From Acidobacteriota bacterium (GTDB lineage: Bacteria; Acidobacteriota; JAAYUB01): a stretch of 64,000 bases of DNA. Positions 37,166 through 52,365 of the stretch are shown here, piece after piece; the stretch's first letter is position 1, and each line of letters begins with the position of its first letter. Location of the stretch: assembly GCA_012517875.1 (NCBI GenBank), contig JAAYUB010000092.1, forward strand, positions 51,121 through 115,120, given 5' to 3'. Both the position numbers and the translations under genes were made by a program. Under the pieces are notes generated by a model. That model worked only from the letters and a program-made list of their open reading frames with translations, was not told the origin of the DNA and ran no database searches.

Positions 37166-38605
37166 TCATTCACTCCGTTGGGGGGGATTGTCGCCGTCGT
37201 TCACAGCGGCCGCCGCCAGGGCGGCTACGAGCACGGGTTCCTCCCCCCGCAGCACCGTACGCGGATCCACCCAGATGCGGTCCGCACTTGTCCGGACGAG
37301 GATCGGCGGATCCCAGCTTCGCAAACGCCGCTCGCAGCCGCTGACCCGATCAGCCGGCAGGTGCACACAGAGGCACGGCCCGTGGATCGCCTGCCCTGGC
37401 GTGGAGCCGCCGCCGATGAGGGACTCACCGTCGGCGACCGTCACCGCCCCGGCCAGGGCCGGTGCCGCCCGCACCAGCCGACGCCGCAGGCTGAGGCAGC
37501 GCCGGCGCAGCGTCGCGGTGTCGGCGGTGATCATGGCCCAGTGCGGCAATCCGGCTCCCGGATCGTTCCGGAAATAGAGCTTCAGCGTCTCGGCCAGGAG
37601 GTAGAGGGTGACCTTGTCCAGACGCAGCGCGCGCATGAGGGGGTGGCGTCGGATGCGGCCCACCAGATCCGCGCGGCCGCAAATCAGCCCGGCCTGCGGC
37701 CCCCCCATCAACTTGTCGCCGCTGAAGCACACCAGCGGCACCCCCAGGGCCAGCAGCGGCGCGACCACCGGTTCGCCCGTCGCGGGCATCCCCGGCTGGG
37801 GGAACAGATAGCCGCTGCCGGCATCCATCACCAGGGGCACGCCGCTGCGGTTCGACAGTTCGAGCAGCTCGGTGGTCGCCGGTGTCTCGGCAAATCCGAC
37901 GATCTCGAAGTTGCTCCGGTGCACCTGCAGGATGAGCCGCGTCTCTCCGCCGAGCGCAGCCGCATAGTCTGCGGCGCGCGTCCGGTTGGTGGTGCCCACT
38001 TCCCGCAGGCGGGCGCCGCTCAGGGCCATGATCTCGGGGATGCGGAACGACCCGCCGATCTCGACTAACTCGCCCCGGGAGACCAGCACGTCACCCCCCT
38101 CGGCCAGCGCGGCGAGGATCAGCAGCAACGCGCCGGCGTTGTTGTTGACTGCGGTGGCGTCTTCGCACGGCAGCAGTTCGCGGCACAGACGGGCCACCGC
38201 CGTGTCGCGGTGGCCGCGCGCGCCGACGACCAGGTCGTACTCCAAGTCCGCATAGCCGCCCAGCGCGTCCGGCAAGCCCGCCAGCACGCCCGCCGACAGG
38301 GGCGCGCGCCCCAGGTTGGTGTGAATGATGACGCCGGTGGCGTTGATCACGCGACGGATCCCCAGCCCCGCCAGGTGCCGGCGCTTCCCTTCAACCTGGC
38401 GCAGAACCAGCTCCACCAACTCCTCCCGGGAAGTCTGTTCCGGCAGCTGCCCGGTAACGATGGCCCGCCGCAACTCCGCCAGCGCCGCCGTGAGCCAGCC
38501 GGTGACCGTTTCCCGGCGATATTCCGCGAGCAGGCGACCGATTTCCGGGAGCTGCACGAGACGGCCGACCGCCGGAAGCAGCGACAGCAAGGCGTTTTCG
38601 CTCAT
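37166..38605 (-). CDS. selA: L-seryl-tRNA(Sec) selenium transferase
   Basis: VINATGVIIHTNLGRAPL, VNNNAGAL, SRGELVEIGGSFRIPEIM, EVGTTNRT, FSGDKLMGGPQAG (PLP lysine); start ATG 38605. Confidence 0.97.
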   Translation of the reverse strand: MSENALLSLLPAVGRLVQLPEIGRLLAEYRRETVTGWLTAALAELRRAIVTGQLPEQTSREELVELVLRQVEGKRRHLAGLGIRRVINATGVIIHTNLGRAPLSAGVLAGLPDALGGYADLEYDLVVGARGHRDTAVARLCRELLPCEDATAVNNNAGALLLILAALAEGGDVLVSRGELVEIGGSFRIPEIMALSGARLREVGTTNRTRAADYAAALGGETRLILQVHRSNFEIVGFAETPATTELLELSNRSGVPLVMDAGSGYLFPQPGMPATGEPVVAPLLALGVPLVCFSGDKLMGGPQAGLICGRADLVGRIRRHPLMRALRLDKVTLYLLAETLKLYFRNDPGAGLPHWAMITADTATLRRRCLSLRRRLVRAAPALAGAVTVADGESLIGGGSTPGQAIHGPCLCVHLPADRVSGCERRLRSWDPPILVRTSADRIWVDPRTVLRGEEPVLVAALAAAAVNDGDNPPQRSE

Positions 38606-38740
38606 CAGATACCCTCGGCGTGCCGGAATGGATGACGCCCCAATTGTAGCACAGGCAGCGAGACGGACGCGCGGCGCTGCATGCCGGCGACACCACTTGC
38701 CTCCGCCTCCAGATCTGTTGTACGCGCTAGCAGGAATCTC

Positions 38741-38769
38741 TTGATTTGGCTCGACTGTTCGTCTATTCT
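38741..38769 (+). promoter_or_regulatory. sigma70-type promoter
   Basis: TTGATT, 17-nt spacer, TATTCT upstream of the AGGAG SD at 38784. Confidence 0.55.
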
Positions 38770-38795
38770 GCAACTGTCACCGCAGGAGAAGGACC

Positions 38796-39188
38796 ATTAC
38801 TCTCACGCCATACATCTTCTTTGGTTTAGCTCCACTGCACAGCTCATCCCCTCTCACCGTCTTTCTGGCGGCTCTTGCCGCCGGGATCCTGTTCTGGACC
38901 ACCGTCTCCGGACGCTACGAAGGGGACCGGCTGGAGCGGTCACTGCGGCTGCCGATCGGATCCCGCTATCTGCACGTCCATCACTGGCTCTATTGCTCGG
39001 TGTTGCTGGTCCTGCTCCACCTCGTGGGTCTTTCCAACCCTCCCACCTGTGGGTTCCTCATCGGAGCGGTGCTGCAGGGGCTGACGTACCGTGACTGGTC
39101 TCTGCTGTGGTACGAGAAGAGCCAGGCCAGCCTCATCTACGCCAAATGGCGTTCCGGCCGTTTGACGGTCCGCAGGATCGACGCATGA
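38796..39188 (+). CDS. small membrane protein with HVHHWLY motif, apparent ATT start
   Basis: Frame open from 38745 to TGA 39188 with no ATG/GTG/TTG before 39000; SD AGGAG 7 nt before ATT 38796; 3-4 hydrophobic segments; stop overlaps the next ATG. Confidence 0.6.
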   Translation: MTLTPYIFFGLAPLHSSSPLTVFLAALAAGILFWTTVSGRYEGDRLERSLRLPIGSRYLHVHHWLYCSVLLVLLHLVGLSNPPTCGFLIGAVLQGLTYRDWSLLWYEKSQASLIYAKWRSGRLTVRRIDA

Positions 39189-40066
39189 TCCGGCGACCGC
39201 TCCGCCGCTTTGCGGCCACAATACTGCTGCTCTGGCTGGGCGCCGTGACCGGTCGGGCCGCGAATCCGGATCCTGCCCTGCCACCTGATACACCCATTGA
39301 CCGGGCGTTCCGGCATTTATACAACTTCGACTTCGCCGGCAGCCTGGCCGTTCTCCACGATGCCGAGCGAACCCAGCCCGACAATCCCCTGGTGCACTCG
39401 GTGCGGGCCGGAACCTACCTGTTCATGGAGATGGACCGGCTCAAGATCCTGGAAACCCGCTTTTTCCTGAACGACGACAACCTGGTGGACGGGACCGGCA
39501 AACTGGAACCCGACCCGGCCGTCCGGAACAAACTGTTCGCCACCCTGGAACGATGCCGCCAGGTCGCCGGCCAACGGCTGCAGGCGGACCCGGACGACGT
39601 GGACGCTCTCTTCGCCATGTGCATGGCCGCCGGCGTCGAAACCGATTACGCGGCGTTGGTGGAACGGCGCACCTGGCGGAGCCTGCGGCTGGCGCCCACC
39701 ATGCTGGTGCACGCAAAACAGCTGCTGGCGCGGACACCTCCTTTCTACGACGCCTACCTCAACTTCGGCTCGCTGGAATATGTGGTGGGCGACCTCCCCT
39801 TCTTCATCCGCTGGTTCATCCGCTACGACGGGGTCAAGGGGAGCAAACAGCGGGGAATCGAGCAGCTGAAGCTGACCGCCAGCCAGGGTCGTTACTATGG
39901 TCCCTACGCCCGGATCCTGCTTGCGGTGGTCTATCTGAGGGAGAATCGACCGGACGAATCCATCCGGCTGCTGGAGGGACTGAGTCGGGAGTTTCCCGGC
40001 AACCACCTGTTCCGCGACGAGCTGACGCGCATCCGCCAGCAGGTCGAGAAGCGCCGAAACAAATAA
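39185..40066 (+). CDS. secreted TPR-like hypothetical protein
   Basis: Signal peptide, helical repeats, YDAYLNFGSLEYVVGDLPFFIRW...G..GSKQRGIEQL; ATGA coupling to upstream gene. Confidence 0.7.
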   Translation: MIRRPLRRFAATILLLWLGAVTGRAANPDPALPPDTPIDRAFRHLYNFDFAGSLAVLHDAERTQPDNPLVHSVRAGTYLFMEMDRLKILETRFFLNDDNLVDGTGKLEPDPAVRNKLFATLERCRQVAGQRLQADPDDVDALFAMCMAAGVETDYAALVERRTWRSLRLAPTMLVHAKQLLARTPPFYDAYLNFGSLEYVVGDLPFFIRWFIRYDGVKGSKQRGIEQLKLTASQGRYYGPYARILLAVVYLRENRPDESIRLLEGLSREFPGNHLFRDELTRIRQQVEKRRNK

Positions 40067-40148
40067 TTGCGAGGGAACATCCGGGTGAGGAACGACCGGC
40101 TGCCGGAACGTTCGCCCCGGCAGCCGGCGGCCCCGGCCGGCGCCGGGT

Positions 40149-41021
40149 TTACTTTTTCTGCTCCACGGTGAACGCGGGCGTGGCCGGAACATTCGGGGCC
40201 TTCACCGCGTTGTCCTGCTGCAGCGGCATCAGGCCGGCGCTTGCCGGCACCCGGCAACCCATGATGGCGCGCTTCACGATTTCCTTCTTCAGGAGCTGGA
40301 TGGCGAACGCCGGATCGATCCCCTTGGGGCAGGCCTCGGAGCAGGCACCGGCAAAGTGGCAGCGGAAGATGCCGAACTTGTTGTCGATCTCCTTCAACCG
40401 CTCGGCAAAGCCCTCGTCGCGGGTGTCGTAGACGTATCGCAGCGCCTGGCCCAGCGGCTGCGGCCCCGGGAATTCCTGCAGCGACGCCACCGTCGGACAC
40501 GCCGACATGCACAACCCGCACTTCAGGCAATAGGAGAACTGAAGGTACCGGACCAGTTCCTCCTCGGTCTGGTGGAATTCGCCGGCGATGGCCTCCGGCG
40601 GCGTCCCGGTGCGAATGATGTACGGCCTGAGCCGGGTGTGCGCGTCGATCATCCGGCTCTGGTCGGTGACCAGGTCCTTGACGATGGGATAGTTGGGCAG
40701 CGGCCGGATCTCGATCACATCGGCATGCAGCTTCAGAACCTGAGTCTGGCAGGCCAGCAGCGGCTTACCGTGAATGAACATGCCACAGGAGCCGCACACG
40801 CCCATCCGGCAAGCCGCGCGCCATGACAGGGTATGATCCAGGTTGGCCTTGATCCAGATCAGCGCGTCGAGGATGGTCATCCCGGACGGGACCGGTACCT
40901 TGTAATCGACCAGCCGGCCGTCTTCGCCCCAGGTGCCGGAGCTGTCCCAGCGGTAGATCCGGAGGATCACATCCTGCACGGCCTTGGTGACGTCGATGAC
41001 CTTGTTGGGATCGCTGCACAT
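40149..41021 (-). CDS. sdhB: succinate dehydrogenase/fumarate reductase iron-sulfur subunit
   Basis: ACRMGVCGSC, CLKCGLCMSACP, CHFAGACSEACP; GGAGGT SD before ATG 41021. Confidence 0.96.
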   Translation of the reverse strand: MCSDPNKVIDVTKAVQDVILRIYRWDSSGTWGEDGRLVDYKVPVPSGMTILDALIWIKANLDHTLSWRAACRMGVCGSCGMFIHGKPLLACQTQVLKLHADVIEIRPLPNYPIVKDLVTDQSRMIDAHTRLRPYIIRTGTPPEAIAGEFHQTEEELVRYLQFSYCLKCGLCMSACPTVASLQEFPGPQPLGQALRYVYDTRDEGFAERLKEIDNKFGIFRCHFAGACSEACPKGIDPAFAIQLLKKEIVKRAIMGCRVPASAGLMPLQQDNAVKAPNVPATPAFTVEQKK

Positions 41022-41023
41022 GC

Positions 41024-41434
41024 TCAACCTCCCAGGGGCGGATTCAGGTGACCGGCCAGGACCGTGTACACCCCGTACACGGCGGCGGCGATGCCGATGA
41101 TGAGGATGACCACGCCCACCACCTGTTTGGCTTTGGCGGAAAACTTGAGCTCGCAGATCATGGACCGGAGCCCGTACAGCCCGTGGAACAGGCCGAACAC
41201 CACCAGCAGGAGATAGACGGCGGTCATGGACACGGACTGCATCCGGGGCAGCACGGCGTGCTGAAAATTCAGCGACCCCACCAGGTGGCCGTCCGATTGC
41301 CAAGCGGCCTGGGGAATGAAACCCAGCCAGGTCAGGATGGAATCAAAATGCTGGATGACCGTGTGAATGCCCAGCAGCAGGATGAGGGCCAAGCCCGAGA
41401 TCAGATGCCAGAACCAGAGTCGTGATTCTTTCAT
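41024..41434 (-). CDS. sdhD: succinate dehydrogenase membrane anchor subunit
   Basis: 3 TM helices with heme-ligand His (GIHTV, FHGLYG). Confidence 0.85.
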   Translation of the reverse strand: MKESRLWFWHLISGLALILLLGIHTVIQHFDSILTWLGFIPQAAWQSDGHLVGSLNFQHAVLPRMQSVSMTAVYLLLVVFGLFHGLYGLRSMICELKFSAKAKQVVGVVILIIGIAAAVYGVYTVLAGHLNPPLGG

Positions 41435-41443
41435 GGCGCCCTC

Positions 41444-41875
41444 CTACAACACCCGGATCAGGTTGAAGAAGTCGGCCGTCCCCACGACCGCCAGCACGAA
41501 CACCACGGCCAGGATCGCGTAGAAGAATACCCGGTTGCGGTCCAGGCAGGTCTGATAGGGATAGACGTTTTTGATCGGGTGCCCGAGGCCGAGGCCGAAT
41601 TCCGCCCAGACCAGGCGGAAGCCATTGCAGGCGTGGATGATGATCGCAAGAAAGAGGAAGTATTCGCCGATGTGCAGGGGTCGCACCGCATCCATGGCGC
41701 CGGCCCAGGCCGCCTCGCCGGCGTTTTTCTGGGCCGTCACATAGAGGTGGATCAGCAGGTACAGGATGATTCCCAGCCCGGTGATCCGCTGCAGGGTGTA
41801 CGCGTATCGCTGGAGGCTATACCGCCCGGCATAGACCCAGCCCCTGATCCCCAGATCGTTGTCCTTTGCTGCCAT
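41444..41875 (-). CDS. sdhC: succinate dehydrogenase cytochrome b subunit
   Basis: LQRITG, YLLIHL, IHACNGFR; 3 TM helices. Confidence 0.9.
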   Translation of the reverse strand: MAAKDNDLGIRGWVYAGRYSLQRYAYTLQRITGLGIILYLLIHLYVTAQKNAGEAAWAGAMDAVRPLHIGEYFLFLAIIIHACNGFRLVWAEFGLGLGHPIKNVYPYQTCLDRNRVFFYAILAVVFVLAVVGTADFFNLIRVL

Positions 41876-41884
41876 GGTGGCCTC

Positions 41885-43603
41885 CTAGTATTTCCGCTCC
41901 ACCGGTTTCCAATGGGTGATGGTGACCGGGATGTAATCCAGGCGCATGCCATCGCCGTCCTGGTAAACCATGGTGTGCTTCAGGAAGTTCTCATCATCCC
42001 GCGTCGCGAAGTCGCGCCGGGCGTGACCGCCCCGCGACTCCTGGCGCGCCAGCGCGCCGAGCACGGCGGCTTCGGCGCAGATCAGCAGGTACTCCATCTC
42101 CAGGGCTGTCAGAAGGTCGGTGTTGTAGACACGCTGCTTGTCGGCGATGCCTGACCGGGCGAAGCGGGCCTTGAGTTCGGCGATGCCCTCCTTGGCTTTC
42201 TGGATCGACTCGCCGGTCCGGAACACCCCCATGTTGAGATCCATGAGGTTTCGCAGGTCGTCCCGGATGGCGTACAGGTTCTCCTCGCCGCCGCGGCCGA
42301 GCAGGTCGACGAACACTCGCTTTTCTTCTTCGGCCACCCTGGCTTGGCTCAGTTCCGCAAAGGACGCTTCCTTGGCGCAGAAGGCCGCGGCTAGCGCCCC
42401 GGTGATCTTGCCCCAAACCAGGCACTCGGCCGTGGAGTTGGAGCCCAGGCGGTTGGCACCATGCATGCTCACGCAGGCGGCCTCGCCCGCCGACCAGATG
42501 CCGGGCGTCGGTGTGGCGCCGTCGATGTCGGTGTGAATGCCGCCCATGGAGTAATGCGCCACCGGCCGGATGGGGATGGGCGCGTCGGTCGGGTCGACGC
42601 CGATGAACTTCATGCAGATCTCGCGGATCAGCGGCAGGCGGTCCTTGATCCGTTCGGCCCCGAGATGGCGCAGGTCCAGGTGGATAAAGTCCAGGCCGCG
42701 AGGGCCCTGGTAGCCCTTGCCGGCCTCCAGTTCCTTGATGATGGAGCGTGATACCAGGTCGCGCGGCGCCAGTTCCATTTTCTCGGGCGCGTACCGTTTC
42801 AGGAACCGCTCACCCTCGCTGTTCACCAGATAGCCGCCCTCGCCCCGGCAGGCCTCGGTCATCAGGATGCCTGACGGAATCAGGCCGGTTGGATGGAACT
42901 GGAGAAACTCCATGTCCTTCAGGGGCAGGCCGGCCTTGAACGCCAGCGCCATGCCGTCTCCGGTGACGGTGTGGGCGTACGTGGTGAATCCAAACATCCG
43001 CCCCGTGCCGCCGGTGGCGATGATGAGCGCTTTGCCTTGAAAGGCCAGCAGCTCGCCGGTGGTCATGCTAATTGCCGTCAGACCGGCGAATCGTCCGTCC
43101 GCAGTCTGGATCGAGGTGACGAACGTCTCGTCATACCGGCTGAAATTGTTGTACTTCAGCAGCGTATCATAAAGGGTCTGCATCTCGAAGAAACCGGTCT
43201 TGTCCGCCGCGTAAACCGCCCGGTTGAAGGAGTGCCCACCGAACGGCCGCTGGGCGATCCGGCCATCGGGGCGCCGGGACCACGGAATGCCCCACTTGTC
43301 CAGCAGCTGGATTTCGGCCGGCATCATTTCCACGAATCGAAAGACCGCATCCTGGTCGGCCAGAAAGTCTGAGCCTTTGACCGTATCCCACGCGTGCAGC
43401 TCCAGGGAGTCCCCCTCCTCCGGCCGGAGCACGGCGGCGGTACCACCTTCGGCGGCCACGGAGTGGGAACGCATCAACTGCACCTTGGAGATCAGGCCGA
43501 TGTTCAACCGTCCCTGGCTGACGATGGACGCCTCCAGCGCCGCTCGCAGCCCGGCCAGGCCCGAACCCAAGATCAGTAGATCGTGACGAATGGTTCTAGC
43601 CAT
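41885..43603 (-). CDS. sdhA: succinate dehydrogenase/fumarate reductase flavoprotein
   Basis: [16 protein letters not shown] (covalent FAD His), [36 protein letters not shown]. Confidence 0.97.
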
Positions 43604-43769
43604 CGCGCGCCTTCCTTGTTGAGATTTCCTCGAATCTTAAGTGGAACGGCAACGACAAGTCAAGGCCTTCTCGTCAGTGCTCATCGAAAAAACAGGTGCA
43701 CACCGGATGGTGAGCGGCTATAATCGGGCCACACGGTTCTGGCTGGACACTGAGGGACCATCCGACGCT

Positions 43770-44360
43770 ATGCCGACCCTGGACGAAGAATTGGCGGAAC
43801 TCGAAAAGCGGATCCGCCAGCTGAAAATCGAGTACGACATCTTCCTCATCGGCGGGAAGAAGACCCCGCCTCGTAATCTCCAAAGCTCGGTGGACACGAT
43901 GATCCAGCGCCTGCTCGACGAGAAGCGGTTCGCGTTCGCGCAGAAATTCAAGTTCCAGACCCTGGTCGCCCGTTACAGCAGCTACCGTGAGCTTTGGCGG
44001 AAGAAGGGCCAGGAACGCGAGGAGAAGGGCATCCTGCGCAGCGAGGAAGAACTGCAGGCCATGATCGAGCATGGGCTCACCCGACCGCTGGAAACCGCCC
44101 CGCCCGATAAATTCGTGCTCGTCACCGACAACCCCGCCGCCGATCCCCAGCAACTCCAGGCCATGTTCGATTTTCTGAACGACGCTCATCGCCGGGTCGG
44201 CGACAATCCGCCGAACATGGACTTTGACAAATTCCGAAAGCTGATCGAAACCCGGACCGAGGAGATCCGAAAAAAATACAAGTGCCGTTACGTGGAGTTC
44301 TCCGTGTCTGTGGACAGCAACGAGAACAAGGTGAAGTTTGCAGCCAAACTGAAAAAATAG
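43770..44360 (+). CDS. MXAN_5187 C-terminal domain-like hypothetical protein
   Basis: LEKRIRQLKIEYDIFLIGGKKTPP...RFKFQTLVARYSSYRELW pattern; ATG 43770 (ORF track starts at 43641). Confidence 0.65.
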   Translation: MPTLDEELAELEKRIRQLKIEYDIFLIGGKKTPPRNLQSSVDTMIQRLLDEKRFAFAQKFKFQTLVARYSSYRELWRKKGQEREEKGILRSEEELQAMIEHGLTRPLETAPPDKFVLVTDNPAADPQQLQAMFDFLNDAHRRVGDNPPNMDFDKFRKLIETRTEEIRKKYKCRYVEFSVSVDSNENKVKFAAKLKK

Positions 44361-44485
44361 GGCGACACCAGCGAAAAGGGTTGCAACCCGATCGTCCCAT
44401 ACGGTATCAATATAAGCTTCGACGCAATCGCTTTTGTGCTAACATGCTTTTGTAATTTTTGAGAAAAAAGGTTGAGGGTATCTCC

Positions 44486-46411
44486 ATGAAGAAGTTTGCG
44501 CTGGGTTTCACACTTTTAGCTGCGCTCGGTGCCGCCGTGGCAGCCCAGGGTGGACCATTTTCCGGCAACGCCGAGGTCTACCTCCAGCTCACCCCGGCGA
44601 CGCCCGCCATCAACAGCACGTTCGAGGTGGACCTGTATGTGGACTTGACCGGGATCACCGGCTCGGGATCCACGCCGGCGGCGCTGGGCGGATTCGCCAT
44701 CCCGGTCGCCTTTGACAACTCCCGGCTGACTTTGATATCTGTCGAGGCAGGCACCAGCGGTGCCTTCACGGCCGGCGACCTGGTTTTCACCGACCTGCCC
44801 CGCGCCAACGCCCGCGGATTCGTCACTGTGGTAAACACGCAGACGGCTTCGGGCACGCCCACCGGCATTGTCCACGTGGCCACGCTGACCTTCCAGACGG
44901 GTCCCCAGGGGGGCCGGGTTCATTTCAACGTCAACTCCGCCCGCACCATCCACGAGGGATCGCTGGCCTCGACCTACACCGCCGCCAACGGCGGGCCGGA
45001 TGAGATTCCTTACGACGATGAAACCGCCCTGGCCACCATCGCGACCGGGGGCGTCTCCTACAGCATCTACTATCCAGTTTTCATCTCCGGCGACGCCGAC
45101 TTCATGGGCGTCACCGTGGTCAACGAGGGCGTCGCCACGGAAAACCTGAACTTCCGGGCTTACAATCCCGCCGGCCAGCTCATCACCCAAGCCGGCATGA
45201 CCAACCCCAACGTGAGCGACAACCCCCTGGCTCCGCTTCAGCAGTATGTCCGCATGAGTCACAACCTTTTCGGCAGCTCCGGCGCGCTGGACATTGAACA
45301 TGGCTGGATCGAGGTGACCGCCAACGAACACAACCTGAGCGGCTTCTTCCTGATCGGCCACATTGAGGGCGCTGACATCACCCAGATGGATGGCGCCGAA
45401 GTGGGTCACCAGGTCGCCTCCCGAGTGATCTTCCCGGTCCTGGGCAAGGACGCCGCCCGCGACACCGACCTGTACGCGATTAATCCCGGCACGACCGCCG
45501 CCGCCGGCAACCTGCTGATGAAAGACAACCTCGGCAATACCGTCCAAACCATTCCCGTCAACATCCCGGCGCACGGTGTGTACGAGGGCACTTTTACCGC
45601 GAACACCCTGGACCGCTACTTCGACCTCACCCTGACCTCCGGCGAGGTGTTCGGTTTCCAGCTGTTCGGCAACGCCAACGCCCTGGCCGGACTCAACGCC
45701 CAGGCAGCGGCGGACACGACGGCTAACATCCTGTACGACGCCCACTTCGCCTCCGGCAACTACGGGATCCGCTATTTCACGGAAATCAATGTGATCAACG
45801 CCTCCGCCCAGGTGGCCAACCTCACCCTCCACCTGATCAATGACGCGGGCAGCGAGATCGTCACTCCCGTCGCCCGCACCCTCAATCCCGGCGCCCAGCT
45901 CCGTGTGATGGGGCACACCCTGTTCGGGTTGCCCGATCCGCTGACCGCCGCGGATGGCGTGAGCGGATCGGTCATGATCGAGAGTGATCAGGGTGTGGTT
46001 GGATCCATCACCTTCGGTGATGCTCAGAACGGCCTTTTCCTGGCCAGCCTGCCGCTGCTGTCCACTTCGGCCGCCAAGCGCGAAATCTATCTGGACCACG
46101 TGGCGATCGGTCTGATCGGTACGGTCAACTACTGGACGGGCATCGCGCTGGTCAATCCCAGCCGGACTCGCACCGCCTCCATCAACCTCCAGCTTTACGA
46201 TCAGAACGGCAACCTGACGGCTCAAACGGCCACGCCGGTCGAGCTGGCTCCCGGTCAGCGCACGTCGCGCATGCTCCCTAGCTTCTTCCCGGGATTCAGC
46301 GGCAACCAGTTCGGCGGCTTCGTCCGGCTGACTTCGGATGTCGAGGTGTTCTCCTTCATGCTCTTCGGCGATGTCAGCCTGAACTTTCTTGCGGCGGTGC
46401 CGGTTCGGTAA
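44486..46411 (+). CDS. secreted protein: cohesin-like domain plus four tandem beta-sandwich repeats (candidate surface scaffold)
   Basis: Signal peptide MKKFALG...AVAA; cohesin-like FEVDLYVD...LGGFAIPVAFDNSRLTLISVEAG...GIVHVATLTFQ; four 100-115-aa repeats sharing G(I/V)xxVN(P)...LxLxDxxG...LxPG.Q...LF...GFxLFG; GAGGG SD. Confidence 0.75.
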   Translation: MKKFALGFTLLAALGAAVAAQGGPFSGNAEVYLQLTPATPAINSTFEVDLYVDLTGITGSGSTPAALGGFAIPVAFDNSRLTLISVEAGTSGAFTAGDLVFTDLPRANARGFVTVVNTQTASGTPTGIVHVATLTFQTGPQGGRVHFNVNSARTIHEGSLASTYTAANGGPDEIPYDDETALATIATGGVSYSIYYPVFISGDADFMGVTVVNEGVATENLNFRAYNPAGQLITQAGMTNPNVSDNPLAPLQQYVRMSHNLFGSSGALDIEHGWIEVTANEHNLSGFFLIGHIEGADITQMDGAEVGHQVASRVIFPVLGKDAARDTDLYAINPGTTAAAGNLLMKDNLGNTVQTIPVNIPAHGVYEGTFTANTLDRYFDLTLTSGEVFGFQLFGNANALAGLNAQAAADTTANILYDAHFASGNYGIRYFTEINVINASAQVANLTLHLINDAGSEIVTPVARTLNPGAQLRVMGHTLFGLPDPLTAADGVSGSVMIESDQGVVGSITFGDAQNGLFLASLPLLSTSAAKREIYLDHVAIGLIGTVNYWTGIALVNPSRTRTASINLQLYDQNGNLTAQTATPVELAPGQRTSRMLPSFFPGFSGNQFGGFVRLTSDVEVFSFMLFGDVSLNFLAAVPVR

Positions 46412-46441
46412 ACCGTTCGCGTGACGCACTGAAAACCCCCA

Positions 46442-46467
46442 AACCCCCTGGGTTCGCCCAGGGGGTT
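46442..46467 (+). terminator. strong hairpin/terminator after the cohesin-like gene
   Basis: Perfect 11-bp stem AACCCCCTGGG-TTCG-CCCAGGGGGTT; short U-tract. Confidence 0.75.
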
Positions 46468-46487
46468 CGTATTATCCGGCAGGCGAC

Positions 46488-48224
46488 ATGCAATCCAATC
46501 GGGAGCGGGCGATCTTCCGACGCAAGCAGGCAGACGACTGCCTGGTGGGCGTGGTCTACCCGGCCGCCTACGCGGTGGGGATGAGCAACCTCGGCTTCCA
46601 ATGGGTGCTTCGGCAGCTGGACGCCACTCCGGGATTCTTCGGCGAACGGTTTTTCTACGCGCCCGGCACCGCGGCTCCCCGGTCGCTGGAAAGTCGACGA
46701 CGCCCGGGCGACTGTCACATGCTGGCGTTTTCCGTGTCGTTCGAAACTGATTATCTCGCCGTGCTGCAATTCCTAGCGGCTGCCGGGTTGCCGCTCCAGT
46801 CCGCCCGGCGGGACCGGCGGCACCCGCTCGTGGTGGCGGGCGGCGCCGCGCTGCAGGTGAATCCGGAGCCGTTGGCGCCGTTCGTGGACCTCGTCGTGGT
46901 GGGCGAGGCGGAGACCGCCTGGACTGAGCTGCTGGCGGTGTATCGTGACAGCGCCGATCGTCACGAGATGCTGTCCCGGCTCGCCGGGCGACCGGGATTT
47001 TATGTCCCCTCGTGGTGGGAGATCCGCTATGGCGACGACGGGGCGATCGTGCAGCAAGAGCGAACCGCCGGAGCACCGGCCGGCGCCGAGCCCGTGGTCC
47101 GCCTGCCGGTGCTCACCGCCGATGATCTGGCTGTCCTGGAACCGCCGTTCACCAACCTGCTGAGCACCGGCAGCGAGTTCGCCCGGACCCTGCTGGTGGA
47201 GGTCGCCCGCGGCTGCCCCACCGGCTGCCGGTACTGCTGGGCCGGTTACCGGTATCGGCCGGTGCGGCCCTTCGCCGAAAGCCGGATCCTCGCGCTCGCC
47301 GATGCCGCCCGCGGCCACACGGACAAAATCGGCCTTGTCTCGACGGCCGTCGGCCAGTATCCCGCTCTGGCCCGCCTGATGGGCGACCTGCGCAGCCGGG
47401 GATTTCACATCGGCCTCTCCTCGATGCGACTGAGGGATCTCACTCCGGAGCTGCTGCGCATCCTCGCCGAGGGCGGGGAGGACACGGTCACCCTGGCGCC
47501 CGAAACGGGCACCGATTCCATGCGCGCCCGACTCAACAAGCCGTTCACCAACGAACAGCTCCTGGATGGCTGTCGCACGGCCCGGGCTGCGGGGATCCGC
47601 CGCGTCCGCCTCTATTTCATGACCGGACTACCCGGTGAGGAGCCGGCCGACGCCGATGCGGCCGCCACGCTTGCCGAAGCGGCCGGCCGGGCCCTGACCG
47701 GCCGCACCGGGGATGGACGGTTGCCGGTGACGGTGTCGCTCTCCCCGTTTGTGCCCAAGCCCAACACCCCCTTTCAATATGCGGCGATGCCTCCCCTCTC
47801 CGAGCTGCGGGCGACACTGCGCCGATATGCCGCCGCGTTGCGCCGTCGCGGGATCAACGCACAGATCGGTTCCGCCCGCGATGCGCATCTGCAGTGGCGC
47901 CTCGCCACCGGCAGCCGGGTGACGGGGCAACAGCTGCTGGCGGTGGCGGAAGGCACGGCCGATCCCGCCGATCTGATCGCTGAACACAGCGCCGTCGCGG
48001 CGCGCCCATACGTCGCCACGCCGGGCCGCCGCCCGCCGTGGGCGGTGACCACATGGGGTTTGTCGGAAGACCATCTCGTCGAAGAATGGCGCCGGTTCCG
48101 GTCGGGCGACCCTACCCCCCCTTGCCCCAGCCTCCCCGGGTGCGCGCGGTGCGGTATATGCGGCAGCTCGGCTCCGTCACCCGACGCACCCCAGAAGCCC
48201 CCTGCTCCTGAATCCACCCGTTGA
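46488..48224 (+). CDS. radical SAM protein (TIGR03960/YgiQ-like)
   Basis: YAVGMSNLG, FSVSFE, VARGCPTGCRYC (CxxxCxxC), TLAPETG, YFMTGLPGE, FVPKPNTPFQ. Confidence 0.85.
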   Translation: MQSNRERAIFRRKQADDCLVGVVYPAAYAVGMSNLGFQWVLRQLDATPGFFGERFFYAPGTAAPRSLESRRRPGDCHMLAFSVSFETDYLAVLQFLAAAGLPLQSARRDRRHPLVVAGGAALQVNPEPLAPFVDLVVVGEAETAWTELLAVYRDSADRHEMLSRLAGRPGFYVPSWWEIRYGDDGAIVQQERTAGAPAGAEPVVRLPVLTADDLAVLEPPFTNLLSTGSEFARTLLVEVARGCPTGCRYCWAGYRYRPVRPFAESRILALADAARGHTDKIGLVSTAVGQYPALARLMGDLRSRGFHIGLSSMRLRDLTPELLRILAEGGEDTVTLAPETGTDSMRARLNKPFTNEQLLDGCRTARAAGIRRVRLYFMTGLPGEEPADADAAATLAEAAGRALTGRTGDGRLPVTVSLSPFVPKPNTPFQYAAMPPLSELRATLRRYAAALRRRGINAQIGSARDAHLQWRLATGSRVTGQQLLAVAEGTADPADLIAEHSAVAARPYVATPGRRPPWAVTTWGLSEDHLVEEWRRFRSGDPTPPCPSLPGCARCGICGSSAPSPDAPQKPPAPESTR

Positions 48225-48306
48225 GCACCCGCCGTTCCAACATCTCCGTTACCCACAGGCACCGTTCCGCAATTCCCCGGTACACCGTTCACGCTGACAG
48301 ACCCCT

Positions 48307-48933
48307 TTATGGCAGCCCCAGGTGCTTGTGGAGCTGGATCTGGAGTCGAACCGGCAGGCGGTCGTCCAGGATCCAGCGGGCCAGGTCCGCCGGCGGAAGC
48401 CCGGGGGTGACGGGCGCAAACAGCACGTCCACACCGGCCGGCAACGGATGGGCTGTGAGATATGTCCGCGCCCACTCGTAATCCGCGCGGTCGGTCAGCA
48501 CAAACTTCAGTTGGTCCGGCGGCCGCAGCTGGTCCAGGTTCTCCACCCGCATCCTGTGGGCCATGCCGGACCCGGGCGTCTTGACGTCCATGATCCGGAC
48601 AACGCGGCCGTCCACGACATCCAGCGGCAACGACCCGTTGGTCTCCAGCAATACCCGGCGGCCATCGGCCAGCAGTCGGCGGCACAGCTCGGGCACGCCG
48701 GCTTGAAGCAGCGGCTCGCCGCCAGTGATCTCCACCAGCGGGCAGCCGAAGGCGGCAACCGCTGCGACCACGTCATCCACGGACATCGCCCGGCCGCCCG
48801 CCCGCGCAGCGAGCGTATCGCAGTAGCGGCAGTCCAGGTTGCAGCCGGCGAGACGGACGAAGGAGCAGGGACACCCGGCGAATGTGGATTCCCCCTGGAT
48901 GCTGAAGAAGATTTCCGCGACAGCCAGCTTCAC
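48307..48933 (-). CDS. queE: 7-carboxy-7-deazaguanine synthase
   Basis: EIFFSIQGE, FVRLAGCNLDCRYCDT, ITGGEPLLQ, LETNG, QIQLHK. Confidence 0.93.
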   Translation of the reverse strand: MKLAVAEIFFSIQGESTFAGCPCSFVRLAGCNLDCRYCDTLAARAGGRAMSVDDVVAAVAAFGCPLVEITGGEPLLQAGVPELCRRLLADGRRVLLETNGSLPLDVVDGRVVRIMDVKTPGSGMAHRMRVENLDQLRPPDQLKFVLTDRADYEWARTYLTAHPLPAGVDVLFAPVTPGLPPADLARWILDDRLPVRLQIQLHKHLGLP

Positions 48934-48960
48934 ACAACCTCCTTGGCCGGCAGGTCGGAT

Positions 48961-48985
48961 AAAAAAGGCCTGCGTGATGCAGGCC
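48961..48985 (-). terminator. intrinsic terminator of tRNA-Ser
   Basis: GGCCTGC-ATCAC-GCAGGCC followed by TTTTTT on the minus strand. Confidence 0.85.
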
Positions 48986-48992
48986 GTTTATC

Positions 48993-49085
<93 letters not shown>

Positions 49086-49110
49086 TCGAAAGATCGCTCT
49101 CGGGCTCCCC

Positions 49111-49139
49111 CTTATAGCACAACCCCCGGGGCGCTTCAA
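49111..49139 (-). promoter_or_regulatory. sigma70 promoter of tRNA-Ser
   Basis: TTGAAG, 17-nt spacer, TATAAG with TGn extended -10 on the minus strand. Confidence 0.75.
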
Positions 49140-49181
49140 CCGAAAACACGGCCGGACACGGCTGCCGTTGCGACACACTCG

Positions 49182-50273
49182 TCACGGCTCTGCGGCGAAG
49201 CCGGCCGGCGGCTCGATGATCTCGTGGCGGTTGTTCCGGCGGGCGGGGGTGAAGCCCGCGTCGCGGACGAGGCGGCGGAGCTCCGCTTCGTTGGTGCGGT
49301 TGACGGTGCCGGTGGCGGCCACGACGTTCTCCTCCAGCATCACCGAACCGATGTCGTTGGCTCCGAACGCCAGCGCCACCTGGGCGATCTTCAGTCCCTG
49401 CGTCACCCACGACGACTGCACCGACAGGAAGTTGTCCAGGTAGATCCGGCTCAGGGCGAGAAAGCGCAGATACTCGACGGCAGTCGCCTCCGGCCCGCCT
49501 TCGTCCCCCAGATCCGTCCGGGCGCTCTGGAATGTCCACGGAATGAACGCGACGAACCCGCCGGTCCGATCCTGTAACTGCCGCAACGATTCCAGATGGT
49601 TCATGCGACTGGCCAGATTCTCTCCGCAGCCGAACATCATGGTGGCAGTGGTGCGGAGCCCCAGCCCGTGGGCGGTCTCCATGACGAGCAGCCACTCGGC
49701 GGCGGTGCACTTGCGCGGACTGATGCGGCCGCGCATGGTGTCGTCGAGAATTTCGGCGCCGCCTCCCGGCAGGGAGCCCAAACCGGCGGCCATGAGCCGG
49801 CGCAGACACTCCTTCAGGGTGATGCCCGAGACGGCCGCGATGTGGACGATCTCCGGCGGGGAAAAGCAGTGCAGGTCGATGGCGTAGCGCTCGCGGATGC
49901 CGCGCAGCAGCCGTTCAAAGAAACGGATGTCGAGACCGGGATGCAGACCGCCTTGCATGAGGATGCCCGTCCCGCCCACGGCGAGCGTCTCCTCGATTTT
50001 TCGGTAGACGGCCGCCGGCTCCAGGACGTAGGCATCGGCTGCGTCGGGGTCGCGGTAAAACGCGCAAAACCGGCATTTCGAGGAGCAGACGTTGGTGTAG
50101 TTGATGTTCCGGTCCACCACGTAGGTGACGGGCCGGTCGCCCTGCAGCCGCCGGCGTGTTTGGTCGGCCAGGTAACCCAGCTCGTGAAGGGATGCGCCTT
50201 CCGCCAGCCGAATGGCGGCGGCGCGTCCAAGCCGCTCGCCGCGCTCGATGCCGGCGAACACTTCAGCCAGCAT
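49182..50273 (-). CDS. mqnC: cyclic dehypoxanthinyl futalosine synthase
   Basis: VDRNINYTNVCSSKCRFCAF, LMQGGLHP, SLPGGGAEIL, VQSSWVTQG, GANDIGSVMLEENVV. Confidence 0.93.
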   Translation of the reverse strand: MLAEVFAGIERGERLGRAAAIRLAEGASLHELGYLADQTRRRLQGDRPVTYVVDRNINYTNVCSSKCRFCAFYRDPDAADAYVLEPAAVYRKIEETLAVGGTGILMQGGLHPGLDIRFFERLLRGIRERYAIDLHCFSPPEIVHIAAVSGITLKECLRRLMAAGLGSLPGGGAEILDDTMRGRISPRKCTAAEWLLVMETAHGLGLRTTATMMFGCGENLASRMNHLESLRQLQDRTGGFVAFIPWTFQSARTDLGDEGGPEATAVEYLRFLALSRIYLDNFLSVQSSWVTQGLKIAQVALAFGANDIGSVMLEENVVAATGTVNRTNEAELRRLVRDAGFTPARRNNRHEIIEPPAGFAAEP

Positions 50274-51069
50274 GGGCCATCTCCAGGTCGGGATCGGTCG
50301 CCACCAGGCCGTCCTCCCGGCAGAGTTGCAGGAACTGCCGGACCGAATCCAGCTCGGGCTCACCCAGGTGATAGGACAGGTTTTCGCCCAGATAGCGGCG
50401 CAGTTCTTCCACCGGCCGGTCGAGCCGTGTGCTGAACTCGGCGGCGATCTCGTCGAGCCGGCGCAACCCCTCGGTTTTGCTTGTTGTCAGGAAGCGGGCC
50501 AACTCCGGGTGGCAGATCTCCCGACGCACCGCCCAGACGGCGAAAACGAAGGAGCGACCGGTGAAGCCGCGCCACAGGGTGGCCAAGTCGTATACTTCGA
50601 CTCCGGCCGTAGCGTCCGTCAGGGCCTGGTCGCCAATGATCAGCGCCGCCTCGCGCCGGCCGAGCGCCGCAGGGCGCATTTCACGGACCTCCATGACGGG
50701 CATCGTCGCCAGCTGCCGCTTCAGCAGGACTTGCAGCAGCGCCACCGACGTGCGGGAGTGGGGGCTCAGCCAGATCCGCTCGATCTCCTGCAGCGGCGAT
50801 CGGCTGGCCAGCACGACGCTGCGCACCGGTCCCGGCGAGGCGATGGCGATGCCCGGCAGGACGACGAGGTCCGGGATACGCACGCACTCCACCACCGGCA
50901 GCAGACCGCCGTCCGATTCGCCCCGCCGCACGGCGTCAGCGCAGCGAGCCGGCTCCTGGAAGCTGACACTCAGCCAGGGCGGAAGCGCCCCGTGGCGCAA
51001 TCCGTAGACGAGCGGCGCCGCATTGAGGAACGACACGGCTGACAGGCGGGTCTGGGGGGAATTGGGCAT
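50263..51069 (-). CDS. mqnA: chorismate dehydratase (futalosine pathway)
   Basis: VSFLNAAPL, GPVRSV, SRTSVAL, LIIGDQAL, YDLATLW...FVFAVW; overlaps mqnC. Confidence 0.92.
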   Translation of the reverse strand: MPNSPQTRLSAVSFLNAAPLVYGLRHGALPPWLSVSFQEPARCADAVRRGESDGGLLPVVECVRIPDLVVLPGIAIASPGPVRSVVLASRSPLQEIERIWLSPHSRTSVALLQVLLKRQLATMPVMEVREMRPAALGRREAALIIGDQALTDATAGVEVYDLATLWRGFTGRSFVFAVWAVRREICHPELARFLTTSKTEGLRRLDEIAAEFSTRLDRPVEELRRYLGENLSYHLGEPELDSVRQFLQLCREDGLVATDPDLEMAHAG

Positions 51070-51180
51070 CGGATGACCGTCCGCGCGGAATCCAGTCCGC
51101 ATTGTAGCCCCGCCTCCACCCCAAAGGCAAACGCCAACTATTTTCGAACACCGGCCGACTCATCCGTTATTAATTAATGA

Positions 51181-52365
51181 ATGCCGATTCGACCTGGAGT
51201 CACGATGCCCCCCAACCCGTCGCCTGCGGCCCCTGCGGTGGCACCGCGCAATCTCCTGCTCCTGCATGCCCTGCCCGGTGCCGGGCCGCGCAAGCTGATC
51301 GAGCTGGTCCAGCGGGCGCCCTTTCTGCTGGCGGAACCGGTGGATAAGAACTTCTGGCTGTTCGTCCAGCGGGAATCGGGCATCGCCGTCACCCGCGCCG
51401 AGCAACACGCGCTGGAGCACCGCACGGATGGCATTCTGGACCGCGTCGCCCGCGGCGAGTTCGACCTGCTTCATTGGTTCGCGGCGGGCTACCCGGAATT
51501 GCTCCGCCACATCTACGATCCCCCGCTGGCGCTGTTCGTGCGGGGCGACCCCGCGCTTCTGAATGGCGACTGTCTGGCCGTGGTGGGCGCCCGACACGCG
51601 TCGGACTACGGCGTGGCGGTGGCGCAGGAATTTGCTTGCCGGCTTGCCGGCACCTGTCTGGTGATCGTCAGCGGCCTGGCCCTGGGCATCGATTCCGCCG
51701 CCCACCTGGGTGCACTGCGGGCGGCGGGCGGCACCGTCGCCGTGCTCGGCTGCGGGATTGACATCATCTATCCCAAGCAGTCCGCCGCACTGCACCGGCG
51801 GATCCTGGAGCACGGGTGCCTCGTCAGCGAGTTCCCGCCCGGGCTGTACCCCGCGCCGCAGAATTTCCCCATCCGCAACCGCATCATCAGCGGCCTGGCT
51901 CTGGGCACCCTGATTGTCGAGGCAACGCAGCGCAGCGGTTCGCTCATCACCGCCCGCCTGGCGCTGGAGCACGGCCGGGAGTTGTTTGCCGTACCGGGTC
52001 CCGTGCATAGCCCCCTGAGCGTGGGCCCCAACTACCTGATCAAACAAGGAGCCAAGCTGGTGCAGCTATGGCCGGACGTCCTCGACGAATTGCCCCGGCC
52101 GGTGCGGGAGCGTATCCGTCCGGCCGCCGGCGACCCGACGGCGGCGGAGCGCCCCCTTGGCGGCGGCACGGAAAATCTCCGTTTGACAAACGACGAAGAG
52201 GCGGTATATAAACACGTGCTTTTTGACCGGAAGGTCCACCTGGATGACCTGTTGCACCGCACGGGTCTATCCATGGGGAAACTGGGAGCCGCCCTGCTGC
52301 AACTCCAGTTCAACAACCTGATCCAGGAACTTCCCGGGCAGTATTATCTCCGGAATGTGAGGTAG
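51181..52365 (+). CDS. dprA: DNA-processing protein DprA
   Basis: DPPLALFVRG, AVVGAR, IVSGLALGIDSAAH, NFPIRNRIISGL, SGSLITA, GPNYLIKQGA. Confidence 0.95.
   Translation: MPIRPGVTMPPNPSPAAPAVAPRNLLLLHALPGAGPRKLIELVQRAPFLLAEPVDKNFWLFVQRESGIAVTRAEQHALEHRTDGILDRVARGEFDLLHWFAAGYPELLRHIYDPPLALFVRGDPALLNGDCLAVVGARHASDYGVAVAQEFACRLAGTCLVIVSGLALGIDSAAHLGALRAAGGTVAVLGCGIDIIYPKQSAALHRRILEHGCLVSEFPPGLYPAPQNFPIRNRIISGLALGTLIVEATQRSGSLITARLALEHGRELFAVPGPVHSPLSVGPNYLIKQGAKLVQLWPDVLDELPRPVRERIRPAAGDPTAAERPLGGGTENLRLTNDEEAVYKHVLFDRKVHLDDLLHRTGLSMGKLGAALLQLQFNNLIQELPGQYYLRNVR

Follow-up and report, generated by a model that had tools for sequence, protein, structure and literature searches.

What would a cohesin-like protein do in a diderm bacterium, when cohesin-dockerin assembly is understood almost wholly from the cellulosomes of Gram-positive anaerobes? 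The question is raised by a gene (44486..46411, plus strand) in a stretch of 64,000 nucleotides from an uncultured Acidobacteriota bacterium of anaerobic digesters and sludge (contig JAAYUB010000092.1 of assembly GCA_012517875.1, positions 51,121 to 115,120 of the forward strand), which we call the window and number from its first letter. A reading of the letters alone, here the sequence-only reading, had taken the product for a candidate scaffoldin with a cohesin-like domain on four tandem beta repeats. We followed it up by structure prediction, profile searches and comparison of related loci. The domain anatomy of the protein is secure: a signal peptide, a divergent cohesin-fold domain (the N-domain) and a four-repeat unit that runs to the C-terminus. 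It is non-catalytic and resembles a minimal anchoring scaffoldin. As to its role, we see about an even chance that it is a secreted one-cohesin adaptor for dockerin-tagged exoproteins, with a glycan-binding four-repeat unit that would keep it on the cell surface or within the matrix.

The N-domain is confidently predicted to have a cohesin fold

Modeled with the family alignment, the full-length protein gave an AlphaFold2 structure with a pLDDT of 90.4 and a pTM of 0.86, and the N-domain itself had a pLDDT of about 90. A Foldseek search of the PDB with this model returned more than 25 cohesin chains at probability 1.00, with target-normalised template modeling (TM) scores of 0.6-0.81 and root-mean-square deviations (rmsd) of 3-4 Å. 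The top matches were the Clostridium perfringens cohesins 2vo8 and 2jh2, both at a target-normalised TM of 0.81, and the list further included 5lxv (Ruminococcus flavefaciens ScaC), 6kgf and 5nrm, which together with the top two span a target-normalised TM of 0.65-0.81, the OlpC cohesin 4dh2, and type I and type II cohesins of Acetivibrio, Pseudobacteroides and Clostridium. When the N-domain was removed and the repeats were modeled by themselves, every cohesin match was lost, so the likeness belongs to residues ~24-187; profile-profile comparison found the N-domain and the four repeats to be unrelated. On the strength of the model, a cohesin fold is confidently predicted for this domain.

Cohesins are nine-stranded beta-sandwiches that bind dockerins in a Ca-dependent manner and with high affinity on their 8-3-6-5 sheet. 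In the N-domain, the most conserved positions lie in strands 3, 5, 6 and 8 as numbered in the predicted structure, and the motifs that had been quoted as cohesin hallmarks, FEVDLYV, GFAIPVAFDNSRLTL and VATLTF, are among the best-conserved positions across 27 homologues and the three domain copies of the protein P0119 described below. At the level of sequence, a phmmer search of the protein against the PDB found nothing, and the sole PDB match of the family profile was a cohesin, at E 0.29. Comparison with cohesins, which had been proposed as a check, brought up many solved cohesin structures at the highest Foldseek probability together with marginal profile matches: the cohesin-like claim holds for the fold, whereas the sequence match stays below threshold. 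Because the sequence signals agree but are weak, the N-domain is best called a divergent cohesin-fold domain and not a demonstrated Pfam cohesin.

The same domain type occurs together with dockerins

The most direct link to dockerins comes from P0119 (770 amino acids), found in an exhaustive profile search, in which a signal peptide is followed by three tandem copies of the N-domain type (E 1e-21 to 1e-24 each) and by a C-terminal Pfam Dockerin_1 domain (E 3.4e-9). As read from these domain matches, its architecture is that of an adaptor scaffoldin. Upstream on the same contig (L015) lies the gene for a BNR/PKD protein of more than 1322 amino acids with a C-terminal Dockerin_1 domain (E 2.4e-10), after which comes the gene for a 124-amino acid protein with a weak dockerin. 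The dockerin-gene cluster that includes P0119 occupies positions 1..7882 of L015 and resembles a small scaffoldin locus. At a second locus (L012), an FG-GAP repeat protein carries a Dockerin_1 domain at 37.5 bits, above the cut-off; about 100 bp downstream of the end of its gene, on the same strand, begins a homologue of our gene with 49% identity.

The window itself encodes a dockerin, which a simple regular expression for dockerin loops missed and which was later detected by a hidden Markov model (HMM) built from four dockerins and run over the window and the loci of the relatives. It forms the last 60 residues (1181-1238, at about 3847-4020 of the window) of the C25 (gingipain-like) peptidase listed in Table 1, where it scored 16.7 bits with Dockerin_1, below the cut-off, and E 4e-6 with the local HMM; both Ca-binding loops, DLDGDGRSDARD and DLNRSGALDALD, are intact. 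The same peptidase has NIDO and InhA-like MAM domains as well. Dockerins from the window, from L012 and from P0119 all have the inter-repeat linker GN(L/I)A(P/S)G, which suggests that they are of one subtype. In view of this dockerin context (P0119, L012 and the C25 peptidase of the window), cohesin-dockerin function is the best reading of the N-domain, a type of domain that is predicted from its gene context to work with dockerins. For a non-catalytic protein with one cohesin-fold domain, the word scaffoldin used in the sequence-only reading says too much.

The four repeats form a single module

Self-alignment of 100-residue windows gave scores of 57-65, compared with 28 ± 5 (maximum 53) for shuffled sequences, and the four repeat segments (Table 1), cut from the 27-member family alignment, matched one another in hhalign profile-profile comparison with probabilities of 92-99% (E 7e-7 to 2e-17), which bears out the four tandem repeats that had been described. 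Each repeat is a beta-sandwich of ~100-120 residues with ~8 strands (DSSP on the models). The repeats reach the last residue of the protein, the terminal ...LAAVPVR being the last strand of repeat 4, which ends in the family-wide motif ...FxLFGD....FL(S/A)AVP. A model of the repeats alone was compact (pTM 0.89), and no solved structure was found with a similar four-domain arrangement (query-normalised TM ≤0.2).

The best structure match of a single repeat was Thermotoga TM1070 (1nc7) of the ASRT family, at probability 1.00, a target-normalised TM of 0.72 and 17% identity. The ASRAH superfamily was defined around ASRT and TM1070 by de Souza, Iyer and Aravind (2009; PMC2739507). Its domains are sandwiches of eight strands in which strand 2 ends with a nearly invariant Asn; when secreted, they are always found in twos or fours (dyads or tetrads), an arrangement that could imitate the tetramer of TM1070, and sugar binding was predicted for them (PMC2739507). 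The sole invariant column across 36 repeats from nine members of our family is an Asn at the end of strand 2, and none of 27 homologues departs from Asn at the four positions concerned (Table 1). The repeats lack both the Trp at the start of strand 1 and the ligand signature SHEshChhN: their strand 1 reads (I/L)(Y/F)xP/(I/L)YxxH with no H/C signature; other ASRAH families have their own residues instead of the ASRT-like signature (PMC2739507). The protein P0031 carries a precomputed match to Pfam ASRT (PF07100).

A second Pfam family, DUF5719 (PF18986), was matched by 18 of the 27 family members (best E 1.5e-9) and by 15 of 44 more distant proteins with the four-repeat unit (best E over both sets 6e-13). 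The match covers ~50-60 of the 319 profile positions and corresponds to the strand-2 to strand-5 stretch of repeat 4; for our protein it reached 18.1 bits against a cut-off of 26.2 and spanned positions 68-116 of 319, short of a full-length match. A literature search for DUF5719 found no paper, and NCBIfam has no model for the four-repeat unit. The repeats are probably distant ASRAH-type domains that are not members of any curated family.

The profile search covered 1.84 billion representative proteins (clusters at 50% identity) and found the four-repeat unit in 4,831 representatives at E≤1e-3, 915 of them at E≤1e-30. Of the 150 matches listed, all but ~10 full-length relatives or fragments align only to profile positions ~185-636 in one colinear stretch, and nearly all have exactly four colinear repeats. 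The unit ends within 15 residues of the C-terminus in 120 of 131 proteins (92%), with the conserved tail ...F(A/E)LFG...L..LSA(V/I)PxQ. Since it forms one colinear, mostly C-terminal block, the unit is one ancient module of ~450 residues whose four repeats keep a fixed order, and not an expandable array.

The module is fused to varied extracellular proteins

Domain scans of the N-terminal parts of 44 proteins with the four-repeat unit revealed Pfam cohesins in five, Dockerin_1 in three and subtilases (S8) in three, along with M36 peptidase, GHL10, beta-helix, fn3, TIG, BACON, PPC, LRR, FG-GAP and beta-propeller domains. With a local HMM, 14 of the 131 carriers had a bona fide cohesin right after the signal peptide, followed usually by fn3 repeats. 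In 10 of the 44, NCBIfam 'choice-of-anchor Z' repeats directly precede the unit, and P0083 consists of ten such repeats and then the unit. NCBIfam applies the name 'choice-of-anchor' to domains that are found with alternative C-terminal anchoring signals, so the four-repeat unit sits where the usual anchors stand. Other proteins, such as P0075 and P0121, are made of a signal peptide and the unit only.

All carriers with a named source are Acidobacteriota; a word-indexed search with the alignment of the unit brought up chiefly close family members and told little more about taxonomic spread. The gene neighborhoods of the stand-alone P0121 (L021) and of the dockerin-unit protein P0155 (L022) were uninformative. 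At L020 (3603..12124), the gene for P0088 (cohesin, fn3 and the four-repeat unit) comes after two genes for fn3-rich proteins. Genes for a polysaccharide deacetylase and an initiating sugar transferase (Bac_transf) are ~5 kb away, which hints weakly at a connection with exopolysaccharide.

Read at the level of domains, these fusions are what one would expect of a terminal module by which extracellular proteins are attached or targeted, and binding of an envelope or matrix glycan would be its most economical mechanism, by analogy with the sugar binding predicted for ASRAH domains. The survey of the repeat profile, with its 4,831 representatives and varied N-terminal fusions, had been proposed along with the idea of an undescribed anchoring module. 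A terminal module widely fused to secreted proteins is indeed what was found, but it is not wholly undescribed, given its likeness to ASRT/TM1070 and DUF5719, and its anchoring role is inferred only.

The protein has a Sec signal and none of the common anchors

The open reading frame (ORF) extends from 44459 to 46411 on the plus strand and is the only long ORF at the site with homologues. Translation from the ATG at 44486, 7 nt past the Shine-Dalgarno-like sequence (Table 1), yields the 641-amino acid product. Its N-terminus, MKKFALGFTLLAALGAAVAAQ, the signal peptide of the sequence-only reading, is a typical signal peptidase I (SPase-I) signal without a lipobox Cys, and Q21, G23 and P24 at the mature N-terminus are kept family-wide. 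The mature protein is acidic (pI 4.6) and poor in Lys. Pfam and NCBIfam scans gave no match above threshold, to catalytic families or to any other. Domain scans and reading of the sequence found no SLH domain, LPXTG, PEP-CTERM or lipobox, the Pfam and NCBIfam scans found no S-layer family, and there was no significant match to Por_Secre_tail in the protein or its family members. A lipoprotein was rejected because the whole protein has no Cys, and sorting by a type IX secretion system (T9SS), PEP-CTERM or LPXTG was rejected because the protein has no such motif.

A proposed tethered dockerin receptor and the points against it

In the mechanism that we propose, the protein would be exported via its Sec signal, and its cohesin domain would bind the Ca-loop dockerins of exoproteins such as the C25 peptidase. 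The four-repeat unit, as an intramolecular equivalent of the TM1070/ASRT tetramer, would bind a glycan of the cell envelope or of the exopolysaccharide matrix, and would thereby keep the complex on the cell surface or within the biofilm matrix. We infer both dockerin binding by the protein and anchoring by its four-repeat unit. A broader proposal, which we advance as speculation and consider rather unlikely, is that the unit may be an unrecognised but widespread attachment module of diderm Acidobacteriota, a counterpart of SLH, LPXTG and PEP-CTERM that acts through an envelope or exopolysaccharide glycan and that builds, with divergent cohesins and dockerins, surface-tethered complexes that would be mainly proteolytic or adhesive and not cellulolytic.

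Several results weigh against the adaptor proposal. For the N-domain, Pfam Cohesin (PF00963) had no match in the protein, matched only two of the 27 family members below the cut-off (best E 1.4e-4) and reached 22.1 bits against a cut-off of 24.1 in P0119; hhalign set the N-domain in register with the 14 bona fide cohesins of the unit carriers at E 0.09, which is not significant. The dockerin gene of the window is 37 kb away from the gene for its putative receptor, and its dockerin is under the Pfam threshold. For the repeats, the link to ASRT is weak, with three of the 27 members matching PF07100 below threshold (best E 2.9e-5), and the repeat profile found nothing significant in the PDB, with ASRT 2ii7 at E 0.72. 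The 11 of 131 proteins in which the unit is N-terminal or internal, and the dockerin proteins among its carriers, fit a plain anchor role less neatly. Finally, gene order around the gene differs at L003-L005, and a 49%-identical orthologue does not have it either.

The main alternative shares the export and the glycan binding and dispenses with the partner: a secreted glycan-binding or matrix protein in which the cohesin-fold domain serves only as a spacer or binding domain, and whose four-repeat unit targets substrates or structures the biofilm matrix. The subthreshold cohesin signals, the sugar binding predicted for ASRAH domains, the stand-alone four-repeat proteins P0075 and P0121 and the position of P0088 near exopolysaccharide genes all agree with it. 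Against it speak the N-domain type in triplicate with a dockerin in P0119, within a cluster of dockerin-protein genes, the dockerin gene that adjoins the homologue in L012, the dockerin encoded in the window, and the bona fide cohesins that occupy the same position in 14 carriers of the unit. We consider a protein without a dockerin partner somewhat unlikely, and rank the dockerin-binding adaptor before it.

Leader, hairpin and transcription of the gene

From an AT-rich upstream region and a UUCG hairpin after the stop codon, the sequence-only reading had suggested another possibility, namely that the protein is abundant and is S-layer-like or otherwise a major structural component of the surface. 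Both elements are there. The leader (44361-44485) has a GC content of 44.8%, against a window mean of 64.9%, which places it in the lowest 0.2% of 125-nt windows, and a sigma-70 consensus scan of it called no promoter. The hairpin, CCCCCTGGG-TTCG-CCCAGGGGG with a stem of 9-11 bp, lies at 46444-46465; it has no U-tract on its 3' side, and a terminator scan made no plus-strand call there. One RNA contig reads through it to 46485, and the supposed monocistronic transcript is left without support.

To follow expression, we mapped four true metatranscriptomes, picked for containing the gene, on a 14-kb stretch. In three of them (X25, X27 and X33), contigs of low depth (2-6) covered the gene, and the fourth (X30) gave no coverage of it. 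The gene was the sole feature covered in X27; in X33 most of the coverage outside a shared tRNA-Ser was on it, and other genes had only scattered contigs of low depth; and in X25 the sdh genes were covered at a similar depth. The gene is therefore transcribed in sludge metatranscriptomes, and abundance cannot be inferred from runs that were chosen for holding it. Four runs labeled 'METAGENOMIC RNA-Seq' (X5-X9), mapped on 38000..52000 of the window, were dropped as expression evidence and treated as DNA because they had flat depth across genes and spacers and contigs of more than 100 kb. The tRNA-Ser(gct) (48993..49085, minus strand) had the greatest depth in all RNA and DNA runs; at its edges many contigs part from one another, and its sequence is common to many community members.

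A structural surface protein would agree with the leader and the stable 3' hairpin, with an acidic, Cys-free and Lys-poor composition, and with transcripts in three of four metatranscriptomes where few neighboring genes appear. The RNA depth, however, is only 2-6, similar to that of the sdh genes, and neither an SLH domain nor an S-layer family was matched. The unit occurs as a module fused to enzymes and adhesins and not as a lattice protein, and one metagenome-assembled genome (MAG) carries two paralogues. We regard an S-layer role as improbable, and the claim of an abundant protein found no support either.

Less likely readings: a sorting tag or a protease trap

Could the four-repeat unit be a C-terminal secretion or sorting domain, read by an outer-membrane system in the manner of a T9SS C-terminal domain and possibly removed, without any binding role? 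Its position within 15 residues of the C-terminus in 92% of occurrences, the conserved terminal motif LSAVPxQ and the way it replaces the usual anchors after 'choice-of-anchor Z' repeats would suit such a tag. At ~450 residues in four folded domains, however, it is far above the size of known sorting tags; the unit is internal or N-terminal in 11 of 131 proteins and stands alone in others, and PEP-CTERM, LPXTG and Por_Secre_tail gave no significant match. We doubt this reading strongly. A periplasmic alpha2-macroglobulin-like protein that traps or inhibits proteases is close to refuted by the missing thioester: Foldseek gave long alignments of the repeats to the macroglobulin (MG)-domain chains of A2ML1, CD109, TEP1 and C3/C4/C5, and Pfam MG2 matched six of the 27 members below threshold, but the likeness is per domain only because the TM was only 0.05-0.18, and the protein has no Cys, CGEQ thioester motif, bait region, CUB domain or thioester domain.

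Comparison with known systems

The nearest known counterparts of the adaptor are single-cohesin anchoring scaffoldins of cellulosome-forming Firmicutes, which we take to include Clostridium thermocellum SdbA and OlpA/OlpC (cohesin and SLH) and Ruminococcus flavefaciens ScaE (cohesin and sortase signal). Like these, our protein is non-catalytic and combines a signal peptide and one cohesin-fold domain with a C-terminal module that is not a cohesin, and as in the Firmicute systems there are dockerin proteins in the genome and a relative, P0119, of the multi-cohesin-plus-dockerin adaptor type. Unlike them, it belongs to a diderm Acidobacteriota host, its cohesin is too divergent for the Pfam model, and four ASRAH-like beta-sandwiches stand in the place of SLH or LPXTG. 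The dockerin cargo seen, namely C25 peptidase, FG-GAP and BNR/PKD proteins, also differs from the cellulases of cellulosomes. Cohesin-dockerin pairing outside cellulose degradation is known from the GH33 and GH84 enzymes of C. perfringens, whose cohesins (2vo8, 2jh2, 2w1n) are the best structural matches to the N-domain (TM 0.81, rmsd 3.1-3.5 Å); they share only 7-11% identity with it and, unlike our domain, sit within large glycoside hydrolases.

As for the repeats, the eight-stranded sandwich, the invariant strand-2 Asn, the tetrad, the best structure match to TM1070 and the predicted glycan-binding role are shared with ASRAH domains (PMC2739507). They differ from ASRT in lacking the strand-1 Trp and SHEshChhN, and the sequence-profile link is weak. 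Whereas the ASRAH domains described in 2009 were fused to amidases, the repeats are fused to cohesins, dockerins, proteases and adhesin repeats, and with at least 4,800 clusters they make up a much larger family, whose named members are in Acidobacteriota. DUF5719 overlaps with only one stretch of repeat 4. With the MG arrays of alpha2-macroglobulin and complement the repeats have in common that they form a chain of similar beta-sandwich domains, but they lack the thioester and Cys and differ in overall arrangement (TM <0.2).

Nothing specific on cohesins or dockerins of Acidobacteria came up in a literature search. The locus points to a divergent cohesin-dockerin set in uncultured digester Acidobacteriota, with a gingipain-like protease as likely cargo, and to a four-domain C-terminal module that is present in at least 4,800 clusters at 50% identity and has no curated domain model as a unit. 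Such a module may explain how abundant, poorly cultured Acidobacteriota retain exoenzymes and adhesins on their surface or within their matrix. If they are confirmed, both the module and the cohesin-dockerin pair would add to the parts available for surface display.

Close family, gene neighborhood and other features

The full architecture is shared by only ~30 clusters at 90% identity, all of ~640 amino acids and 38-80% identical. Eight loci were found in species-representative genomes. Seven of them, 49-99% identical to our protein, belong to MAGs of Acidobacteriota, of which several came from sludge or digesters. The eighth (L010, JAKQDQ010000059.1) is a contig of 2.4 kb that was assigned to a Verrucomicrobiota MAG; it holds a 95%-identical gene copy and is probably mis-binned, as all other carriers are Acidobacteriota. 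A 92%-identical copy sits on the 5.0-Mb contig JAXGLX010000002.1 of a near-complete relative. Public runs with the exact gene are metagenomes of sludge and anaerobic digesters. In the MAG Go_SlDig_bin_198, a 99%-identical copy is broken by a 100-N scaffold gap (L011, ~10405..10504), which is an assembly gap and no real deletion.

The gene is flanked by a divergent sdhA, a cytoplasmic hypothetical gene (Table 1) and a B12/radical-SAM gene. The same order is found around the 48%-identical orthologue of L001, where the hypothetical gene keeps its position upstream; that position is lost in L003-L005. Because gene order is not conserved, we read no operon-level function from the neighbors.

Table 1. 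Positions in the window of the gene, its parts and two other features.
Feature	Position	Strand	Evidence or remark
AT-rich leader/promoter region	44361..44485	+	Shine-Dalgarno-like GAGGG at 44474-44478
Sec signal peptide, residues 1-20, probable cleavage AVAA/Q	44486..44545	+	sequence reading
Divergent cohesin-fold domain (N-domain), residues ~24-187	44555..45046	+	AlphaFold2, Foldseek, weak cohesin profile matches
Repeat 1, residues 188-307	45047..45406	+	hhalign 92-97% to other repeats; invariant Asn213
Repeat 2, residues 308-407	45407..45706	+	hhalign; invariant Asn333
Repeat 3, residues 408-526	45707..46063	+	hhalign; invariant Asn438
Repeat 4, residues 527-641, and stop codon	46064..46411	+	hhalign; invariant Asn557; weak DUF5719 match at residues 553-602
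UUCG-loop hairpin, stable	46444..46465	+	33 nt 3' of the stop; possible terminator or 3' stabiliser
Candidate partner: 1240-amino acid secreted C25 (gingipain-like) peptidase	3838..7560	-	Pfam Peptidase_C25 E 3.4e-51
Hypothetical protein, 217/239 amino acids, cytoplasmic, no Pfam match	43641..44360	+	directly upstream of the gene

Within the ORF, ARAGORN called a 92-nt tRNA-Gly(gcc) at 46154..46245 on the minus strand, which is very probably a false positive because Rfam does not detect it, and a 637-amino acid antisense ORF is a shadow ORF, as expected in high-GC DNA. Beside the sdh operon, the window holds selA for selenocysteine synthase (37166..38773, minus strand), so the organism probably uses selenocysteine.

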